Assembly (NCBI GenBank): GCA_030583865.1
Contig: CP129479.1
Coordinates: forward strand, 2,637,053-2,701,052
Direction of reading: 5' to 3'
Source of the DNA: Thermodesulfobacteriota bacterium
GTDB lineage: Bacteria; Desulfobacterota; GWC2-55-46
DNA: 64,000 nt
The notes under the pieces are model-generated. The model saw nothing but the letters and a program-made list of their open reading frames with translations, was not told the DNA's origin and did no database searches. The translations under genes were made by a program, and so were the position numbers. This document shows, in pieces, positions 12,197 through 27,005 of this stretch; position 1 is the stretch's first letter; the number at the start of each line of letters is the position of its first letter.

Positions 12197-12265
12197 TGTC
12201 ATTCCGAGGGAGCGTCAGCGACCGAAGAATCAGATACGAGATTCTTCGCTACGCTCAGATTGACA
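12197..12265. repeat. Family-2 palindromic element, short copy
   Basis: TGTCATTCCGAGGGAGCGTCAGCGACCGAAGAATC...GAGATTCTTCGCTACGCTCAGATTGACA; its arms are reverse complements of each other. Confidence 0.75.
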
Positions 12266-20257: not shown

Positions 20258-20366
20258 TGATTGATTCGCAAATTTTGTCATTCTGAGCGAAGCGAAGAAT
20301 CTCGTATTCAGGAAAATCCGCGAGTTACGAGATTCTTCGGTCGCTTACGCTCCCTCAGAATGACAA
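20258..20366. repeat. Family-2 palindromic element with conserved GATTGATTCGCAAATTT leader
   Basis: TGTCATTCTGAGCGAAGCGAAGAATCTCG...CGAGATTCTTCGGTCGCTTACGCTCCCTCAGAATGACA. It is preceded at 20095-20255 by two further hairpin repeats, including the family-3 motif CTCCCCTGCCCCTCT. Confidence 0.8.
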
Positions 20367-20378
20367 AAATACTACTGG

Positions 20379-21695
20379 CTAAACCTTTTCTCCGGCAGCG
20401 ACAGCCCCTTTCATGCCGCCGTTTGCGGGCTCCTGAAGCTCCGCCTCCACAAGCTTTCTCTTGAGCGCGTCGTCGCCTTCGAGAAATACACGTATGTAGT
20501 TCCGCGCCCTTCCTGTAAGGAGCCCTGAGCGCCTGTCGCGGCCCCCCTCAACGAGCACGCCGGCTTTTTTGCCGATAAAATTTTGATGGAAGGCGTCCCT
20601 CTTGGCCCGATCAAGCTCCTGCAGCCTCGAACACCGCTCTTTTACGGTGCGGGGCTCGACCTGGTCTTTAAAATCCGCGGCAGGCGTGCCACGGCGTTTC
20701 GAGAACGGGAATACGTGGAGATAGGCTATCGGCAGGCCGGAGAGGATCGAATAGGTATTTTCGAATTCGGCATCTCCCTCGCCCGGAAAGCCCGCTATGA
20801 CGTCAACGCCCACGGATATCTCCGGCACGGACGCGACAAGCCTCTCGATCCTTTCGGCAAAGAGCTCCCTTGTGTAAGGCCTTCTCATGCGCTTTATGAT
20901 GTTATCATCGCCGCTCTGAAGGCAGAGGTGCAAATGGTTGCAGACCCTTTTGGCGTCTTGCAAAATTTCAATGAGCCTGTCCGTCACCTCGTCCGGGTCG
21001 AGGGAACTGAGCCTGAACCTGCACGGGTAGTCCTTTTTCTCTATAAGCTCAAGCAGCGTTGTTATGTCGGTTGATGGCGATAAGTCCGCGCCCCATGCGC
21101 CGAGGTGTATGCCCGTGAGCACCACTTCCTTGTATCCGGCTTCAACGAGAGAGTCGAACTCGCGCTCGATTTCATTCAAGGGGAGGCTCTTCGATAGGCC
21201 CCTGGCCCTGGGGATGATGCAATAGGAGCAGGCTCTTCCGCACCCTTCCTGTATCTTCATGTTGGCCCTGGTGCGGCCCGATGAGGAGCGGGCGCGAAGC
21301 GTCCAGGGCGTGCCCTCCTGCCACTGACCCAGGTCTTCCGTAATCCCCTGCCGCCTGCCGCCAAGGAGATATTCGACGATCCTTTCCTTCTCCGGGTTCC
21401 CTACCACGAAATCAACTCCGAGCGATTTCACTTCATCGGGCGAGACCTGCGCGTAGCAGCCTGTTACCACCACTATCGCGCCGGGGTTTTCCTTCCGCGC
21501 CTTCCTTATTACCTGTCGCGACTGGGTATCTGTCCTGCCCGTGACCGTGCAGGTATTTATGATATAGGCGTCGGCAGGCCCGGAAAAGGGCGCGACCTCG
21601 AATGACGCGGCGCGGAGCGCGTCCTCGAGCGCGGAAGAGTCGTACTGGTTCGACTTGCAGCCGAGGGTTGTTATGGCGACTTTCCTCACGTTCAC
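20379..21695 (-). CDS. mtaB: tRNA methylthiotransferase (MiaB-like, MtaB-type)
   Basis: VAITTLGCKSNQYDS MTTase N-terminal domain, CSYCIIP radical-SAM cluster motif and a TRAM domain. The start is ambiguous: GTG at 21695 or 21689, or ATG at 21716. Confidence 0.8.
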   Translation of the reverse strand: MNVRKVAITTLGCKSNQYDSSALEDALRAASFEVAPFSGPADAYIINTCTVTGRTDTQSRQVIRKARKENPGAIVVVTGCYAQVSPDEVKSLGVDFVVGNPEKERIVEYLLGGRRQGITEDLGQWQEGTPWTLRARSSSGRTRANMKIQEGCGRACSYCIIPRARGLSKSLPLNEIEREFDSLVEAGYKEVVLTGIHLGAWGADLSPSTDITTLLELIEKKDYPCRFRLSSLDPDEVTDRLIEILQDAKRVCNHLHLCLQSGDDNIIKRMRRPYTRELFAERIERLVASVPEISVGVDVIAGFPGEGDAEFENTYSILSGLPIAYLHVFPFSKRRGTPAADFKDQVEPRTVKERCSRLQELDRAKRDAFHQNFIGKKAGVLVEGGRDRRSGLLTGRARNYIRVFLEGDDALKRKLVEAELQEPANGGMKGAVAAGEKV

Positions 21696-22798
21696 TTCCT
21701 CGCCTCCCGTATCCATCCGCCGCCGAGCACCTCGTCGCCGTCGTAGATTACGACACCCTGTCCGGGGGTGATGGCCTTCTGGGGCTTGCCGAAGGCGACC
21801 TCTATTGATCCGTCCGGCAGCGTCTTCACCATGCAAGGCGCTTCCTCATGTCGATAGCGTATCTTCGCGGCGGCAATCAGTTTGCCGCCGCGCGCCTTTT
21901 CCATTGCCTCAGGATTTATCCAGTTTACATCAACGGCGGTAAGGCCGTTGGAATAGAGCCTTTCAGCGCTTCCCACCACGACCCTGTTCGACGGGACTAC
22001 GATGTCGAGAACATAAAAAGGGCCGCCCGAGAGGTTAAGCCCCTTCCGCTGGCCGATGGTGTAATTGAATAGGCCCTTGTGCCTTCCAAGCACATGGCCT
22101 TCAGTATCGACTATATCTCCGGGCGCGTTCGGAACGCGCGCCGATAGGAATTCCGCGTAGCTCGGCTCTTCGACAAAGCAAATCTCCTGGCTCTCTGCCT
22201 TCTCGGAAGTCCGGACGGAAAGCGAGCGCGCAAGCTCCCTTACTTCGGGCTTGGTGAGATTTCCAAGCGGAAAAAGGACGCGCCCGAGCTGTGCCTGCGT
22301 CATGGTAAAGAGGAAGTAGCTCTGGTCTTTGGAATGGTCAACGCCCTTAAGAAGGCGCATGCCCCAGGGCGCGCGCTCTATGCGGGCGTAGTGGCCTGTT
22401 GCGAGATAGTCTGCTTCAAGGCCGAGGGCCTTATTAAGCAGCACCTCGAACTTCAGGACCTGGTTGCATTTTATGCAGGGGTTTGGGGTGGAGCCGCTGG
22501 AATAGGACGAGACGAAGTAATCGACGACCTCGCGCGAGAAGGCCTCTTCCACGTTAACGACGTAGAAGGGCACACCGAGGCTGTCGGCCACGCGCCGCGC
22601 GTCGTGGATGTCGTCGAGGGAGCAGCAGCTTCCGGCGGTTGCGCCGCTCCCTTCCTCTCTTTCGAGTTCTTTTTTGGAGTAGTCCCAGAGCTGCATCGAG
22701 ACGCCGATGCATTCATAGCCCTGCTCCTTGAGGAGAGCAAGGGCTGTGGATGAATCAACGCCGCCGCTCATGGCGACTACCGCCTTCTTTCGGGACAT
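21692..22798 (-). CDS. mnmA: tRNA-specific 2-thiouridylase
   Basis: VVAMSGGVDSS PP-loop and the overall MnmA architecture. Confidence 0.9.
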   Translation of the reverse strand: MSRKKAVVAMSGGVDSSTALALLKEQGYECIGVSMQLWDYSKKELEREEGSGATAGSCCSLDDIHDARRVADSLGVPFYVVNVEEAFSREVVDYFVSSYSSGSTPNPCIKCNQVLKFEVLLNKALGLEADYLATGHYARIERAPWGMRLLKGVDHSKDQSYFLFTMTQAQLGRVLFPLGNLTKPEVRELARSLSVRTSEKAESQEICFVEEPSYAEFLSARVPNAPGDIVDTEGHVLGRHKGLFNYTIGQRKGLNLSGGPFYVLDIVVPSNRVVVGSAERLYSNGLTAVDVNWINPEAMEKARGGKLIAAAKIRYRHEEAPCMVKTLPDGSIEVAFGKPQKAITPGQGVVIYDGDEVLGGGWIREARK

Positions 22799-22832
22799 TC
22801 CGTAAGTCCTCGGCCCTTGAAAAACGGCTCTA

Positions 22833-22856
22833 AAAGGGGTAATCCCCTTAATTTTA
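22833..22856 (-). terminator. Putative intrinsic terminator downstream of hicB
   Basis: AAGGGGTAATCCCCTT hairpin followed by a T-run on the minus-strand transcript. Confidence 0.45.
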
Positions 22857-22985
22857 ATAAAGAATCAGACGTTTTGCCAGAGAAAAGTTGGGGGGAGGAA
22901 ACGCAGGACGGATTTCAGGGAACATCTGATTGGTTCGCGAATGTTTGTCATTCTGAGCAAAGCGAAGAATCTGTATTTATGAATA

Positions 22986-23201
22986 TTACTCGTTTACGGC
23001 TATGTACTCCGCAAAAGAGGATGATTCGGGAATGGGGAGATTGTCTTCCTTCATGCCGCGGATATGGAGCTCGACGGCCTCGTGCATGTTACGCTCGGCT
23101 TCCTCGCGCGTCGCGCCGGTTGCAACACAGCCGGGGAGGTCGGGCGAGTATGCGGAAAAATTATTGTCCGCCTTTTCAATCACGATAAGAAAACGATGCA
23201 T
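22986..23201 (-). CDS. hicB: HicB-family antitoxin (UPF0150)
   Basis: MHRFLIVIEKADNNFSAYSPDLPGCVATGATREEAERNMHEAVELHIRGM is a classic HicB N-terminal domain with an AAGGAG RBS. No hicA was found nearby. Confidence 0.8.
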   Translation of the reverse strand: MHRFLIVIEKADNNFSAYSPDLPGCVATGATREEAERNMHEAVELHIRGMKEDNLPIPESSSFAEYIAVNE

Positions 23202-23444
23202 TATTTTTTCTCCTTGTGGGTAACTATTCAGTTTATTCCTTTTGGGTGGATTTCGTCAAGACAGAATGGCAGGCACAGCAATTATGTAAATGGCTTGTAT
23301 ACTGGATTGAATATGCGGTATAAAAAGAACAAGAACTGGTGGGCGGAGCCCACCGGCGACTGGCGAGAAGCCATCTCGCCCTTCATGGGAAAGTGGTGTG
23401 CCTACCGGAACCTTGGAAGCAGATTCCGCTCCACGGGCTAATTA

Positions 23445-24200
23445 ATGAAGAAAATAAGACCAAATTCTTTGACCAACGCGCCTCTCCAGTATGCACCACA
23501 AAATGAAATCGGTGTCGTCTATCTTTTTGCTCACATTGCACGCAAAAAACAATTTCGCATTGAAGAAATTCGCCCTCAATTCCCCGATTGTATTGCATAT
23601 CGACGAAGTGGTGACCGTGAGAAGCTTGTCAGGATTGAATTTGAATTTCGATCAAGCAATTTCAAATCACATGGTCACGATCCCAAAAAATGTGATTGTA
23701 TAGTATGTTGGCATCATGATTGGCCTGATTGTCCCTTAGAAGTAATTGAATTAAAAAAAGAATTTCATTCCGTACCAAAGATTTGGATTCAGCCGGCGAG
23801 GGAAGATCAGTGGCACTGGCTGGAAAATTCAAAAAGGGTTTCATGGGGCATTTCTAAACGCGCCACTATCGGCGACCTATTGCTCATATACCGATGTCGT
23901 CCAGAAAAGACTATCAAGGAAATTTACACACTAATTGGGGAAAAACATAGAGGAAAAGCTGATTGGAGAGAAGGTGACTGTTACATTGGAAACATACAGC
24001 GGTTGTGTTTATTAGAAGCGCCCATTTTTTTCGAGGACCTGAAGTCTCATCGTGTCCTTAAGACTGCTGGGTTTGTACGTCGTAATCTACAGGGCAATCT
24101 TCTTGTTTCAGAATATTGGCCATATATTCATGATATGATCGTTAAAAGAAATCCGAAGGTAGCAAAAATACTTAAAAACTATGACCCGATGAAATTATGA
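23445..24200 (+). CDS. Hypothetical protein with C-terminal PUA-like (EVE/ASCH-type) signature and possible N-terminal PD-(D/E)xK-like nuclease motif
   Basis: C-terminal half: W..ISKRATIGDLLLIYRC...IKEIYTLIGE, resembling the EVE core GDxvLfYhS...ivGiaeV. N-terminal half: FPDCIAY...VRIEFEFRSSNFK. It is AT-rich and divergent from hicB. The call is based on motif recognition only. Confidence 0.45.
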   Translation: MKKIRPNSLTNAPLQYAPQNEIGVVYLFAHIARKKQFRIEEIRPQFPDCIAYRRSGDREKLVRIEFEFRSSNFKSHGHDPKKCDCIVCWHHDWPDCPLEVIELKKEFHSVPKIWIQPAREDQWHWLENSKRVSWGISKRATIGDLLLIYRCRPEKTIKEIYTLIGEKHRGKADWREGDCYIGNIQRLCLLEAPIFFEDLKSHRVLKTAGFVRRNLQGNLLVSEYWPYIHDMIVKRNPKVAKILKNYDPMKL

Positions 24201-24335
24201 AAAAAAATGGGTCTTCACCATTTTCTGTGGGTAGATTTGTGAGCCTTGTAGTTTGGGTTAGCGGAGCGTAACCCAACAAATTATATTCCTAAACCAGATT
24301 GCCGCGCTACGCTCGCAATGACATCCAAAAAACCA

Positions 24336-24365
24336 AAGCCCCCCGGGTCTCCCCGGGGGGCTTTT
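24336..24365. terminator. Bidirectional intrinsic terminator
   Basis: AGCCCCCCGGGTCTCCCCGGGGGGCTTTT GC-rich hairpin with T-runs on both strands. It terminates the plus-strand island ORF and minus-strand nifU. Confidence 0.7.
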
Positions 24366-24392
24366 CAATTCCAATCTTTTTCCCGCCTGAAA

Positions 24393-24773
24393 CTACTTCG
24401 CCGTACCGGCGAGCTTCTTCTTGTAGTCCTCTATTGCCGCGTGGAGGGCGTCTGCCGCGAGGTTCGAACAGTGCATCTTTACGGGCGGGAGGCCGTCGAG
24501 GGCCTCGGCGACCGTGCTGTTCGATATCTGCTCGGCCTCATCGAGCCCCTTGCCCTTAACAAGCTCCGTAACCATCGAGCTCGTCGCGATGGCCGCGCCG
24601 CAGCCGAAGGTCTTGAACTTCACGTCGGTTATCACGTCGTTCTCGACCTTGATGCTGAGCTTCATTATGTCGCCGCACGCCGGGTTGCCCACCGTGCCCG
24701 TTCCGTCCGCGCCCTCTACCTCGCCCACGTTCCTGGGGTTTGAGAAGTGGTCCATCACCTTTTCGCTGTACAT
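24393..24773 (-). CDS. nifU: Fe-S cluster assembly scaffold protein NifU/IscU
   Basis: NPACGDIMKL...FKTFGCGAAIA...HCSNLA, three conserved Cys of the IscU fold. Confidence 0.9.
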   Translation of the reverse strand: MYSEKVMDHFSNPRNVGEVEGADGTGTVGNPACGDIMKLSIKVENDVITDVKFKTFGCGAAIATSSMVTELVKGKGLDEAEQISNSTVAEALDGLPPVKMHCSNLAADALHAAIEDYKKKLAGTAK

Positions 24774-24855
24774 TTTCGTGGCTCCTGTCTATTTCGCCTG
24801 TTGGTTGTTTGAGAAGCTTCCTTCTATGTAGTTTCTGAATGGGCCTTTCGCCCGG

Positions 24856-24952
24856 TTGATTGCAGATTCGAATTCTGTCATTCTGAACGAAGTGAAGAAT
24901 CTGGTTTGGTTGAAATACGAGATTCTTCGTCGCTTCGCTTCTCAGAATGACA
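24856..24952. repeat. Family-2 palindromic element
   Basis: GATTGCAGATTCGAATTCTGTCATTCTGAACGAAGTGAAGAATC...GAGATTCTTCGTCGCTTCGCTTCTCAGAATGACA; followed by the family-3 motif CTCCCCCTGCCCCTCTTTAAGAAAGAGGGG at 24961-24990. Confidence 0.8.
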
Positions 24953-25002
24953 CTCTTAATCTCCCCCTGCCCCTCTTTAAGAAAGAGGGGTGAATTAAAT
25001 AA

Positions 25003-25129
25003 AGATTTTTCCCCGCTTTTCCAGAAGGTCGGGAATAAAAAGCGGAGCATATATGACAATATGTGAGCATTTTTATTCCCGGCCTGACAAAGAGTCCGGG
25101 GAAAAGATCAATTTTTATAAGACAATTCT
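25003..25129. repeat. Family-1 MITE-like element with degenerate termini
   Basis: The core GGGAATAAAAAGCGGAGCATATATGACAATATGTGAGCATTTTTATTCCCGGCC is conserved, but the outer TIRs have diverged. Confidence 0.75.
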
Positions 25130-25150
25130 ATTCCAACTCCGGTTTCCTTG

Positions 25151-26332
25151 TCAACCCTTGCCCCCTGCCGCGTAGAGCGGCGACATGGCCCGCATCCGCT
25201 CGACTATGGGCGGCATTGTCTCGAGGAGAAAGTCTATCTCCTCTGCGGTGTTTGATTTCCCCAGGCTGAACCTGACTGAGCCGTGCGAAAGCTCGTGGGT
25301 AAGGCCCATTGCGATGAGCACATGAGAGGGCTCAAGGCTCCCGGATGTGCAGGCAGAGCCGCTTGAGGCCGCAATGCCCTTCATGTCGAGGTTAAGGAGG
25401 AGCGATTCGCCCTCCACGAACTCGAAGCTGATGTTCGAGGTGTTGGGTAGCCTCTTATCCGCGTGCCCGTTCACCTTTATGTGCGGCACCCTCTCGGCCA
25501 TGCCCTTCTCAAGCCTGTCCCTCAGGGATTTAAGGTGCTCTATCTCCTTGTCCATGTCGCGTAGCGCTATTTCCGCTGCCTTGCCCATGCCGACTATTCC
25601 GGCCACGTTCTCGGTTCCGCCGCGCCTGTTCCTCTCGTGGTGGCCGCCGTGGATAAGGGGCACGAGCCGCACGCCCCTTTTAACAAAGAGCGCGCCTATT
25701 CCCTTGGGGCCGTAGAGCTTGTGCCCGGATATGGTAAGGAGGTCGCAGTTGATGTCCTTTACGTCTATTTTGGCCTTCCCTGCGGCCTGGACAGCGTCCG
25801 TGTGGAAGGCTATTCCCTTTTCCTTCGCTATCGCGCCTATCTCCTTCATGGGGAAGAGGACGCCTGTCTCGTTATTGGCGAACATGACGGATATTAGGAT
25901 AGTCTTGGGGGTGATGGCGGCCTTTAGCTCGTCGAGGCTTATGAGGCCGTCGTTATCCACGCCAAGATAAGTGACCTCGAAGCCCTCCTTCTGGAGGTGC
26001 TTGCAGGTATTCAAGACCGCCGGGTGCTCGACTGCGGTCGTTATGATGTGGTTGCCCTTGTCTTTCTTCGCGTAGGCGAGGCCCTTCAGGGCGTGGTTGT
26101 CGCCCTCGGTGCCGGAGCTTGTGAAGATGAGCTCGGTATTCGTGCAGTTAAGGAGGGCGCAGACCTTCTCCCTTGCGTCCTCGACCGCCTTCCTCGTGCC
26201 GCGGCCTGCCCAGTGTATGGATGAGGGGTTGCCCCACTGCTCTTTAAGAAACGGGACCAGGGCCTCGAATACCTCTTCGGGCACAGGGGTCGTCGCGTTG
26301 TGGTCAAAGTAGATCCGGTTCAATGTGCTCAA
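25151..26332 (-). CDS. nifS: Cysteine desulfurase
   Basis: Class V aminotransferase with the PLP lysine in SGHKLYGPKGIGAL and the active Cys in SSGSACTSG. Confidence 0.9.
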   Translation of the reverse strand: MSTLNRIYFDHNATTPVPEEVFEALVPFLKEQWGNPSSIHWAGRGTRKAVEDAREKVCALLNCTNTELIFTSSGTEGDNHALKGLAYAKKDKGNHIITTAVEHPAVLNTCKHLQKEGFEVTYLGVDNDGLISLDELKAAITPKTILISVMFANNETGVLFPMKEIGAIAKEKGIAFHTDAVQAAGKAKIDVKDINCDLLTISGHKLYGPKGIGALFVKRGVRLVPLIHGGHHERNRRGGTENVAGIVGMGKAAEIALRDMDKEIEHLKSLRDRLEKGMAERVPHIKVNGHADKRLPNTSNISFEFVEGESLLLNLDMKGIAASSGSACTSGSLEPSHVLIAMGLTHELSHGSVRFSLGKSNTAEEIDFLLETMPPIVERMRAMSPLYAAGGKG

Positions 26333-26528: not shown

Positions 26529-27005
26529 TCAAGACCGCGTTTGCTCGGTTATGCCGCATACGTTTGTGTTCACGGGCGGGTGGCCGGATTTAAGGGCCAG
26601 GGCCTCCCGGCTCAAGTCTTCTATGGAAACCGAATTAAGGAACTCGGAGATCTTCTCTGCAAGGCACTTCCAGACGCGCTGGGTGGTGCAGGTTGTGGCC
26701 CTGTCGCACCCGGCTGAGTCGTCGTCGAGGCAGGCAACCGGGTTCATGGGCTCCTCGACCACTGAGATAATGTCGCCCACGCTTATGACCGCAGGCGGCT
26801 TGGCGAGCACATATCCGCCGCCGGGGCCCCTGACGCTCTTTACGATCTTCCCCTTCCTGAGCTTCACGAAAAGCTGCTCAAGGTAGGAGAGAGAGATGCC
26901 TTCCTCAGCCGAAATGTCCTTCAAGGTCACGGGCTTTTCGCCGGAATGGCAGGCGAGATTTACCATCGCCCGAACCGCATACTGACCTTTTGTGGATAAC
27001 CTCAC
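26529..27005 (-). CDS. iscR: Rrf2-family transcriptional regulator (IscR-like)
   Basis: MRLSTKGQYAVRAMVNLA...ISLSYLEQLFVKLRK wHTH, with a C-terminal Cys cluster for Fe-S ligation. Confidence 0.85.
   Translation of the reverse strand: MRLSTKGQYAVRAMVNLACHSGEKPVTLKDISAEEGISLSYLEQLFVKLRKGKIVKSVRGPGGGYVLAKPPAVISVGDIISVVEEPMNPVACLDDDSAGCDRATTCTTQRVWKCLAEKISEFLNSVSIEDLSREALALKSGHPPVNTNVCGITEQTRS

Follow-up and report, generated by a model that had tools for sequence, protein, structure and literature searches.

Fusions of an EVE domain to a PD-(D/E)XK nuclease, with the EVE domain at either end, recur among the predicted type IV architectures (Bell, Wolf and Koonin, 2020, PMC7641849), and the modular logic of joining a sensor to a nuclease is documented for modification-dependent endonucleases (PMC6765204; PMC12191111). 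In a screen by Lutz et al. (2019, PMC6765204), the sole fusion of a PUA-superfamily domain to a PD-(D/E)xK nuclease was YenY4I (EVE-DUF3427-PD-(D/E)XK), which was described as 'at least one instance.' Here we describe a gene of this predicted kind in a 64,000-nt stretch of contig CP129479.1 (assembly GCA_030583865.1, positions 2,637,053 to 2,701,052) from a Thermodesulfobacteriota bacterium; we refer to this whole stretch as the window. The gene, which we will term nuclease-EVE, encodes a protein of 251 amino acids (aa), with a predicted PD-(D/E)xK-type module at its N terminus and an EVE domain at its C terminus. We propose that the protein is probably a modification-dependent (type IV-like) endonuclease that stands alone and consists of a single polypeptide.

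The protein and its family

The two-domain architecture had been predicted from motifs in the sequence. The coordinates and length in this original prediction match the listing of open reading frames (ORFs) exactly, and all of the motifs that it quoted are present in the protein (FPDCIAY at residues 46–52, RIEFEFRSSNFK at residues 63–74, GDLLLIYRC at residues 143–151, and IKEIYTLIGE at residues 157–166). A homology search with the window protein yields 605 homologues of about 250 aa, with 57–89% identity among the top 120 of them, and every homologue that has a name in its source database is called 'hypothetical.' Relative to the closest homologues, synonymous codon differences exceed nonsynonymous differences by about 3:1 (90:30, 92:38, and 99:44), which shows that purifying selection acts on the protein.

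An EVE domain forms the C-terminal half

Nine of 35 aligned family members match the Pfam EVE family (PF01878) individually (best E = 5.4e-8), and homologue P0021 has a precomputed PF01878 annotation. Also, a profile of the C-terminal domain (alignment A5, 33 diverse C-domains) matches the solved EVE proteins 2gbs (E = 4.5e-4), 1zce (E = 2.3e-3), and 2ar1 (E = 0.044) among the sequences in the PDB. These matches bear out the EVE (PUA-like) call that had been made from motifs. The window protein alone matches Pfam EVE at E = 0.016 (15.6 bits, residues 113–223). The boundaries in the original prediction were slightly off, as the EVE domain begins near residue 113 and not residue 125.

As a third independent line of evidence, the C-terminal half has a PUA-like pseudobarrel fold that is closest to solved EVE structures, and its best functional analogues by structure are THYN1 and VcaM4I, both of which bind modified DNA. 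Invariant or near-invariant residues in this half are W114, W134, D144, Y149, W225, and N236. The base pocket of VcaM4I is formed by P24, W82, and Y130, with Q128 as the wedge (PMC7897488).

The N-terminal module has a predicted PD-(D/E)xK topology

We modeled the N-terminal module alone from alignment A3, which comprises 43 diverse copies of the module from different architectures (predicted local distance difference test [pLDDT] of 94.2, predicted template modeling score [pTM] of 0.86). In this model, helix 21–31, strands 37–42, 49–55, and 58–69, helix 71–76, and strand 85–90 follow each other in the alpha-beta-beta-beta-alpha-beta order of the core of the PD-(D/E)xK superfamily, and the full-length model repeats this arrangement. 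E21 lies in the first helix, P47-D48 open the second strand, and E65-x-E67 lie in the third strand, which are the superfamily's catalytic positions. All five of these residues are invariant in the 43 modules of A3 and in the 35 full-length members of alignment A1. Given their positions in the predicted fold, E21, D48, E65, and E67 are the predicted metal-binding and catalytic site. Thus, the core topology of the model and the placement of the acidic residues agree with the PD-(D/E)xK-like assignment in the original prediction.

The other residues that are invariant in A3 are P18, G23, F28, C88, W89, P97, and L103, and C49, S70, H76, H78, C83, and D84 are near-invariant. The conserved cysteines and histidines among these may form a structural metal site.

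Although its predicted topology is of the PD-(D/E)xK type, the module has no sequence match among the described Pfam, NCBIfam, and PDB families. The window protein has no match in NCBIfam or PHROGs, and searches of PDB sequences with the single sequence and with a full-length profile gave chance matches (a nanobody, E = 0.56, and a 47-aa peptide, E = 8.3). Structural comparison of the module with Foldseek gave no match at E ≤ 0.001; the best E was 0.2, with a probability of 0.47 and TM (template modeling) scores of at most 0.42. The top entries, all of them non-significant, were SwaI, FokI, several BamHI structures, MspJI, and Cap4.

The module is combined with many other domains

In an exhaustive search with a profile of the module, 2654 cluster representatives matched at E ≤ 1e-3, of which 1664 also passed E ≤ 1e-10, where each representative stands for a cluster of proteins at 50% identity. 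The module is near-complete in 137 of the best 150 representatives: it is N-terminal before an extension in 80 of them, C-terminal behind an extension in 41, alone in 11, and in the middle in 5. A window-type EVE domain is absent from 84 module-bearing representatives. When 60 EVE-less module proteins were compared to Pfam, 17 contained the homing endonuclease associated repeat (PF18780), and the other partners were DUF5655, ParB-HTH, sigma-70 region 4, HTH_38, and DUF1016_N. PHROGs added ParB-like regions. Others (P0187, P0199) carry divergent EVE-like C-termini on the module. Because a domain with a conserved acidic site has been swapped among DNA-binding or reader domains, the module behaves like a catalytic effector.

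An alternative C-terminal partner that ends in NTGWYAEKDE recurs in P0198, P0200, P0233, P0258, P0260, and P0185, with DUF5655 in two cases, and may be another nucleic-acid reader in place of EVE. EVE-less versions of the module are common in Acidobacteriota (loci L070 to L092, from Terriglobia, Ca. Angelobacter, and others), and at least one metagenome-assembled genome (MAG) contains two such loci (L082 and L091). The EVE-less type, with the homing-endonuclease repeat in many of its members, suggests a multi-copy and possibly selfish nuclease family that is undescribed at the level of sequence families. A limited search of the literature on PF18780 returned only an unrelated paper on repeat modeling.

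The gene is rare, solitary, and horizontally transferred

We found 166 relatives of the protein in about 185,000 species genomes, and nearly all of them are in uncultured MAGs. Copies from Nitrospirota (Dissulfurispiraceae) and Planctomycetota are 87% identical and copies from Nitrospirota and Actinomycetota are 83% identical, while two Planctomycetota copies are only 71% identical, which is at odds with taxonomy. The gene is poorer in GC than the flanking DNA at 43 of 48 loci (mean difference of −0.059), and each full-length homologue has a genomic context of its own. The gene has been transferred horizontally. In one Thermogutta MAG, two contigs (L066 and L067) both end within the 5' part of a homologue (residues ~2–91, 73–74% identity), and these assembly breaks at the same gene hint that this MAG carries several near-identical copies.

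No neighbor is conserved: among the 150 nearest neighbors in the 48 loci, the commonest Pfam family appears only three times. Neighbors of mobile or defense type include an IS200 transposase, integrases (two), PIN domains (two), DNA methylases (two to three, with PADLOC methyltransferase models matching two), RhuM, and PADLOC mad2 (four). HEPN, NERD, and McrBC are found within about 8 kb at some homologue loci. In the window, there is no methyltransferase gene adjacent to nuclease-EVE or within the insert that contains it (Table 1).

Proposed function and alternatives

As in type IV systems, a predicted reader and a nuclease are fused in one polypeptide, there is no obligatory cognate methyltransferase, and the distribution is patchy and shaped by horizontal transfer. 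A modification-sensing, horizontally acquired nuclease is consistent with all of the comparative evidence, and we propose the following mechanism. By analogy with VcaM4I and THYN1, the EVE domain would bind nucleic acid that contains a modified base, which would probably be flipped into the pocket. Binding would then tether or license the N-terminal nuclease, whose predicted metal site (E21, D48, E65, and E67) would be a BamHI-like E..PD..ExE constellation without the lysine, and the nuclease would cut the DNA nearby. The single gene could move between genomes and shield its hosts from elements whose genomes are modified, such as phages. A partner methyltransferase would be unnecessary because the enzyme would attack only modified DNA, and this would explain why the gene is solitary and freely transferable.

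Several observations weigh against this proposal. The canonical lysine of the (D/E)xK motif is replaced by an invariant glutamate (E65-F-E67). As ExE and ExQ variants occur within the superfamily (in BamHI and BglII), this weakens the case for canonical membership but not for membership in the fold. Residues 1–112 of the window protein, and the corresponding part of 95 relatives, match no family in Pfam, NCBIfam, or PHROGs, and a profile of the N-terminal domain has only chance matches to PDB sequences (E ~1). The EVE score of the window protein is below Pfam's gathering cutoff (15.6 versus 23 bits). The link between homologues and defense islands, which the original prediction had named as a check, is weak: in the 48 loci, for which there is no background control, most neighbors are ordinary metabolic genes, and genes of mobile or defense type are a minority. 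Sequenced phages and plasmids contain almost no trace of the family (no match among GenBank phages or PLSDB plasmids, and two loci in IMG/VR). We infer the enzymatic activity, as well as DNA as the substrate, the reading of a modification, and the role in defense. Finally, EVE domains can also bind RNA.

It could be, then, that the protein is directed at RNA: the EVE domain would read a modified RNA base, such as a hypermodified tRNA nucleotide, and the nuclease would be an RNase that serves as a toxin, an abortive-infection effector, or an RNA-quality factor. We consider this unlikely. The proximity of the gene to tRNA-modification genes in the window is shared by none of the 48 homologue loci and, by comparison with empty sites (see below), reflects an insertion; HicB, the antitoxin-like neighbor, is not conserved either. 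Moreover, other partners of the module bind DNA (ParB-HTH, sigma-70 region 4, and homing-endonuclease repeats), as do THYN1 and VcaM4I in its modified form. A selfish, free-standing endonuclease gene of the homing type, with EVE as a mere DNA-binding module and no host defense, also seems to us a poor prospect. We found no intron, intein, or phage context, and the insertion site differs at every locus, which implies that there is no conserved homing site. Also, an EVE reader would be specific for a modification, while homing depends on the recognition of a long sequence, and the strong purifying selection across distant hosts fits a benefit to the host at least equally well.

A role in DNA repair or regulation is more doubtful still. 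The EVE domain might sense that a base in the DNA of the host is damaged or modified and the nuclease might nick it, as for NucS/EndoMS, or the nuclease fold might be dead and the protein might just bind DNA. But the gene is too sporadic for a housekeeping function (166 relatives in the ~185,000 species, incongruent with taxonomy, and with foreign GC content), there are no conserved repair partners in the 48 loci, and the invariance of all four acidic residues points to an active metal site. We give almost no credence to the idea of a metalloprotease-like domain of the JAB/MPN type, with an H76-x-H78 motif, in the N-terminal half in place of a nuclease. This idea arises from a weak match to PADLOC's 'JAB' model (residues 14–91, E = 0.014) and from the near-invariance of H76, H78, and D84. 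We rejected it: the MPN fold appeared in neither of the fold searches, and the MPN fold with its JAMM motif was not found.

Returning to a modification-dependent nuclease, there is a more ambitious version that we regard as a long shot. The module would be a new family of the PD-(D/E)xK fold (E..PD..ExE, with a Cys/His cluster that may bind metal) that acts as a plug-in cassette for homing-endonuclease-repeat, HTH, DUF5655-type, and EVE partners, and its fusion to EVE would target a mark other than 5-methylcytosine or 5-hydroxymethylcytosine. Candidates for the mark under this version, and no firmer than it, would be a hypermodified base of phages or a modification carried by RNA, for instance in thiolated tRNA. 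If true, a target of this kind would make the protein a new specificity class of modification-dependent nuclease.

The gene was inserted between iscU and mnmA

The coordinates of the features that we discuss are given in Table 1.

Table 1. Features of the nuclease-EVE gene and its surroundings (positions are in the window, except for the last row)
Feature	Position	Strand	Basis or remarks
Two-domain nuclease-EVE gene	23445..24200	+	ORF listing; ATG start, 251 aa plus stop codon, complete
PD-(D/E)xK-like nuclease module, residues ~14-110	23484..23774	+	Predicted fold, conserved acidic residues
Span with predicted catalytic residues	23505..23645	+	E21 23505-07; P47-D48 23583-88; E65 23637-39; E67 23643-45
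C49, H76, H78, C83 (near-invariant) and C88 (invariant)	up to 23708	+	Alignment conservation
EVE (PUA-like) domain, residues ~113-237, predicted modified-base sensor	23781..24155	+	Pfam, profile, fold
Low-GC insert, 1594 nt, mnmA start to iscU stop	22799..24392	.	Empty-site comparison, GC trough
HicB-like (UPF0150) gene, 71 aa, orphan	22986..23201	-	Pfam HicB_lk_antitox, E = 1.4e-12
MiaB-like gene	20379-21836	-	ORF listing
mnmA	21692-22798	-	ORF listing
iscU	24393-24773	-	ORF listing
iscS/nifS	25151-26332	-	ORF listing
Rrf2/IscR-like regulator	26529-27005	-	ORF listing
Perfect 13-bp GC-rich hairpin between convergent genes	24335-24364	.	Mainly iscU terminator, possibly shared
25-nt repeat GTCATTCTGAGCGAAGCGAAGAATC, four copies	12240-12264 (-), 20277-20301 (+), 22947-22971 (+), 24877-24901 (+)		All intergenic
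Palindromic element of ~70 nt, MITE-like (miniature inverted-repeat transposable element) or REP-like (repetitive extragenic palindrome)	about 24877-24950		GTCATTCTGAGCGAAGCGAAGAATC plus inverted partner
928-aa protein downstream of iscU in locus L095	L095 3926-6712	-	STAND-like NTPase N-terminus, many TPR repeats, C-terminal SEC-C motif

The gene had been described as AT-rich and as part of an island, and both descriptions hold. Its GC content is 0.398, as compared to 0.585 for the whole window, and it lies in a trough (0.38–0.42 in local 300-nt windows, 0.57–0.62 in the flanks). We compared the site to 80 metagenome loci that were anchored on IscU. In 21 of these loci, mnmA is the next gene after iscU and has the same orientation (the two are 1–263 nt apart in 20 of the 21), and neither nuclease-EVE nor the hicB-like gene is present in any of the 80. 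In the window, the pair is split by the insert, which contains exactly these two genes. In the closest relative (L095, IscU 88% identical, with iscR-iscS-iscU syntenic), a gene for a 928-aa protein lies downstream of iscU. This is a different cargo. The iscU-mnmA junction behaves as a variable hotspot, and defense-type cargo may tend to accumulate downstream of iscU. The 928-aa protein is STAND/Avs-like in appearance. We considered a conserved link to tRNA modification (mnmA, iscS/iscU, and the MiaB-like gene) and rejected it: no homologue locus shares this context, and the iscU-mnmA pairs of relatives are uninterrupted.

Loci L010 to L012, contigs that carry the identical protein, match the window at 100% identity from end to end and so come from the same genome; they are uninformative on the boundaries of the inserted element. 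The similarity of flanking DNA to the closest homologues (L013 to L018, 72–80% identity) stops within 1–9 nt of the ORF, and these loci are too diverged for their flanks to define a cassette. We looked for direct or inverted repeats that might flank the island and mark its ends, and we found only chance-level matches of 12–14 nt.

The original prediction had described the island as bounded by repeats. The 25-nt repeat is indeed present on both sides of the gene, with four copies in the window versus 0 expected by chance. However, two further copies lie at 12240 and 20277, and the copy at 24877 lies beyond iscU and is followed by its own inverted partner. So, the repeat is dispersed between genes and is not a marker of the island's ends. 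A 33-nt match (91%) lies at a locus in an Actinomycetota MAG (L015, 1931–1963), and distant environmental bacteria therefore share the motif. A dispersed-repeat variant (GTCATTGCGAGCGTAGCGCGGCAATC, 24297–24322, minus strand) and a single-copy hairpin motif (TTGGGTTACGCTCCGCTAACCCAA, 24253–24276) lie 3' of the nuclease-EVE gene.

Similarly, the gene had been credited with its own strong bidirectional terminator. The 13-bp hairpin is real, but it lies 29 nt from the stop codon of iscU and 135 nt from that of nuclease-EVE, and its long T-run (GGTTTTTTGG) is on the minus strand. It is thus primarily the terminator of iscU, which the two genes may share. The 181-nt region at 24195–24375 folds much better than shuffled sequences (z = −4.0), and much of this is owed to the iscU terminator hairpin. 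Rfam has nothing at E ≤ 0.1 over 22000–25500.

The neighboring 71-aa gene is, as had been proposed, an orphan antitoxin by annotation: it matches HicB_lk_antitox, and there is no HicA-like ORF of at least 20 aa on either strand of 22790–23460, so a HicAB pair was not found. The fold of the protein is that of the UPF0150/HicB N-terminus, and a DNA-binding domain is lacking. HicB-like genes are absent from the most frequent neighbor families in the 48 homologue loci. Because it is not conserved beside homologues, the HicB-like gene is probably not part of the nuclease-EVE system but a separate passenger or remnant. On the other side of mnmA, the MiaB-like ORF, which starts with TTG, shares 145 nt with the 3' end of mnmA, and its N-terminal ~45 residues resemble low-complexity read-through; its true start is probably further downstream.

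Significance

If it is active, nuclease-EVE would be a compact, single-gene modification-dependent nuclease from uncultured environmental bacteria, and its family would be a new addition to the toolkit for detecting modified DNA. Such enzymes map epigenetic marks and reveal hypermodified phages. What may be more useful is that a single unannotated cassette with many DNA-targeting partners provides a handle on about 1,600 or more 50%-identity clusters (E ≤ 1e-10). The recombination of the module also illustrates the modularity of sensors and effectors in prokaryotic immunity.

Comparison with known systems

BamHI, whose active site is E77, D94, E111, and E113, is a type II enzyme that recognizes a specific sequence, has a cognate methylase, and lacks a reader domain. 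The window protein shares with it the four acidic residues, ExE in place of ExK, and a spacing of 17 residues from the aspartate to the ExE. BamHI also recurs among the top Foldseek matches, at non-significant E-values of 0.7–1.7. The MspJI/AspBHI family, which combine an SRA-like sensor with a PD-(D/E)xK nuclease, are characterized relatives in kind, as are VcaM4I, TspA15I, and the rare YenY4I.

Among modular enzymes with other nucleases, the END nucleases (PMC12191111) resemble the window protein in having an N-terminal catalytic domain and a C-terminal sensor, and their nuclease has been recombined with alternative sensors that include EVE. They differ in that the nuclease is of the PLD type and the sensor is an inactivated EndoIII domain, derived from HhH glycosylases. 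In the EVE-HNH enzymes VcaM4I and TspA15I (PMC7897488, PMC6765204), the domain order is reversed relative to the window protein, whose nuclease is N-terminal and is of PD-(D/E)xK and not HNH type; the EVE halves share about 9% sequence identity. YenY4I is alike in fusing a PUA-superfamily domain to a PD-(D/E)xK nuclease, but a DUF3427 domain lies between the two and they stand in the opposite order, and we detected no sequence relation between it and the window protein.

The EVE-PD(D/E)XK proteins of Bell et al. (PMC7641849) share with the window protein the EVE sensor, the PD-(D/E)xK nuclease, the sporadic distribution, and a divergent EVE domain whose detection often requires sensitive methods. 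The window gene differs from these in that its module has no sequence match among Pfam, NCBIfam, and PDB nuclease families, has ExE in place of ExK, and contains the conserved Cys/His set. As the concept of a type IV system from EVE and PD-(D/E)xK had already been published as a prediction, the gain is incremental. The window protein represents an unannotated family of the already recognized EVE-nuclease type, and what is mildly new is the module itself and its wide recombination with targeting domains.

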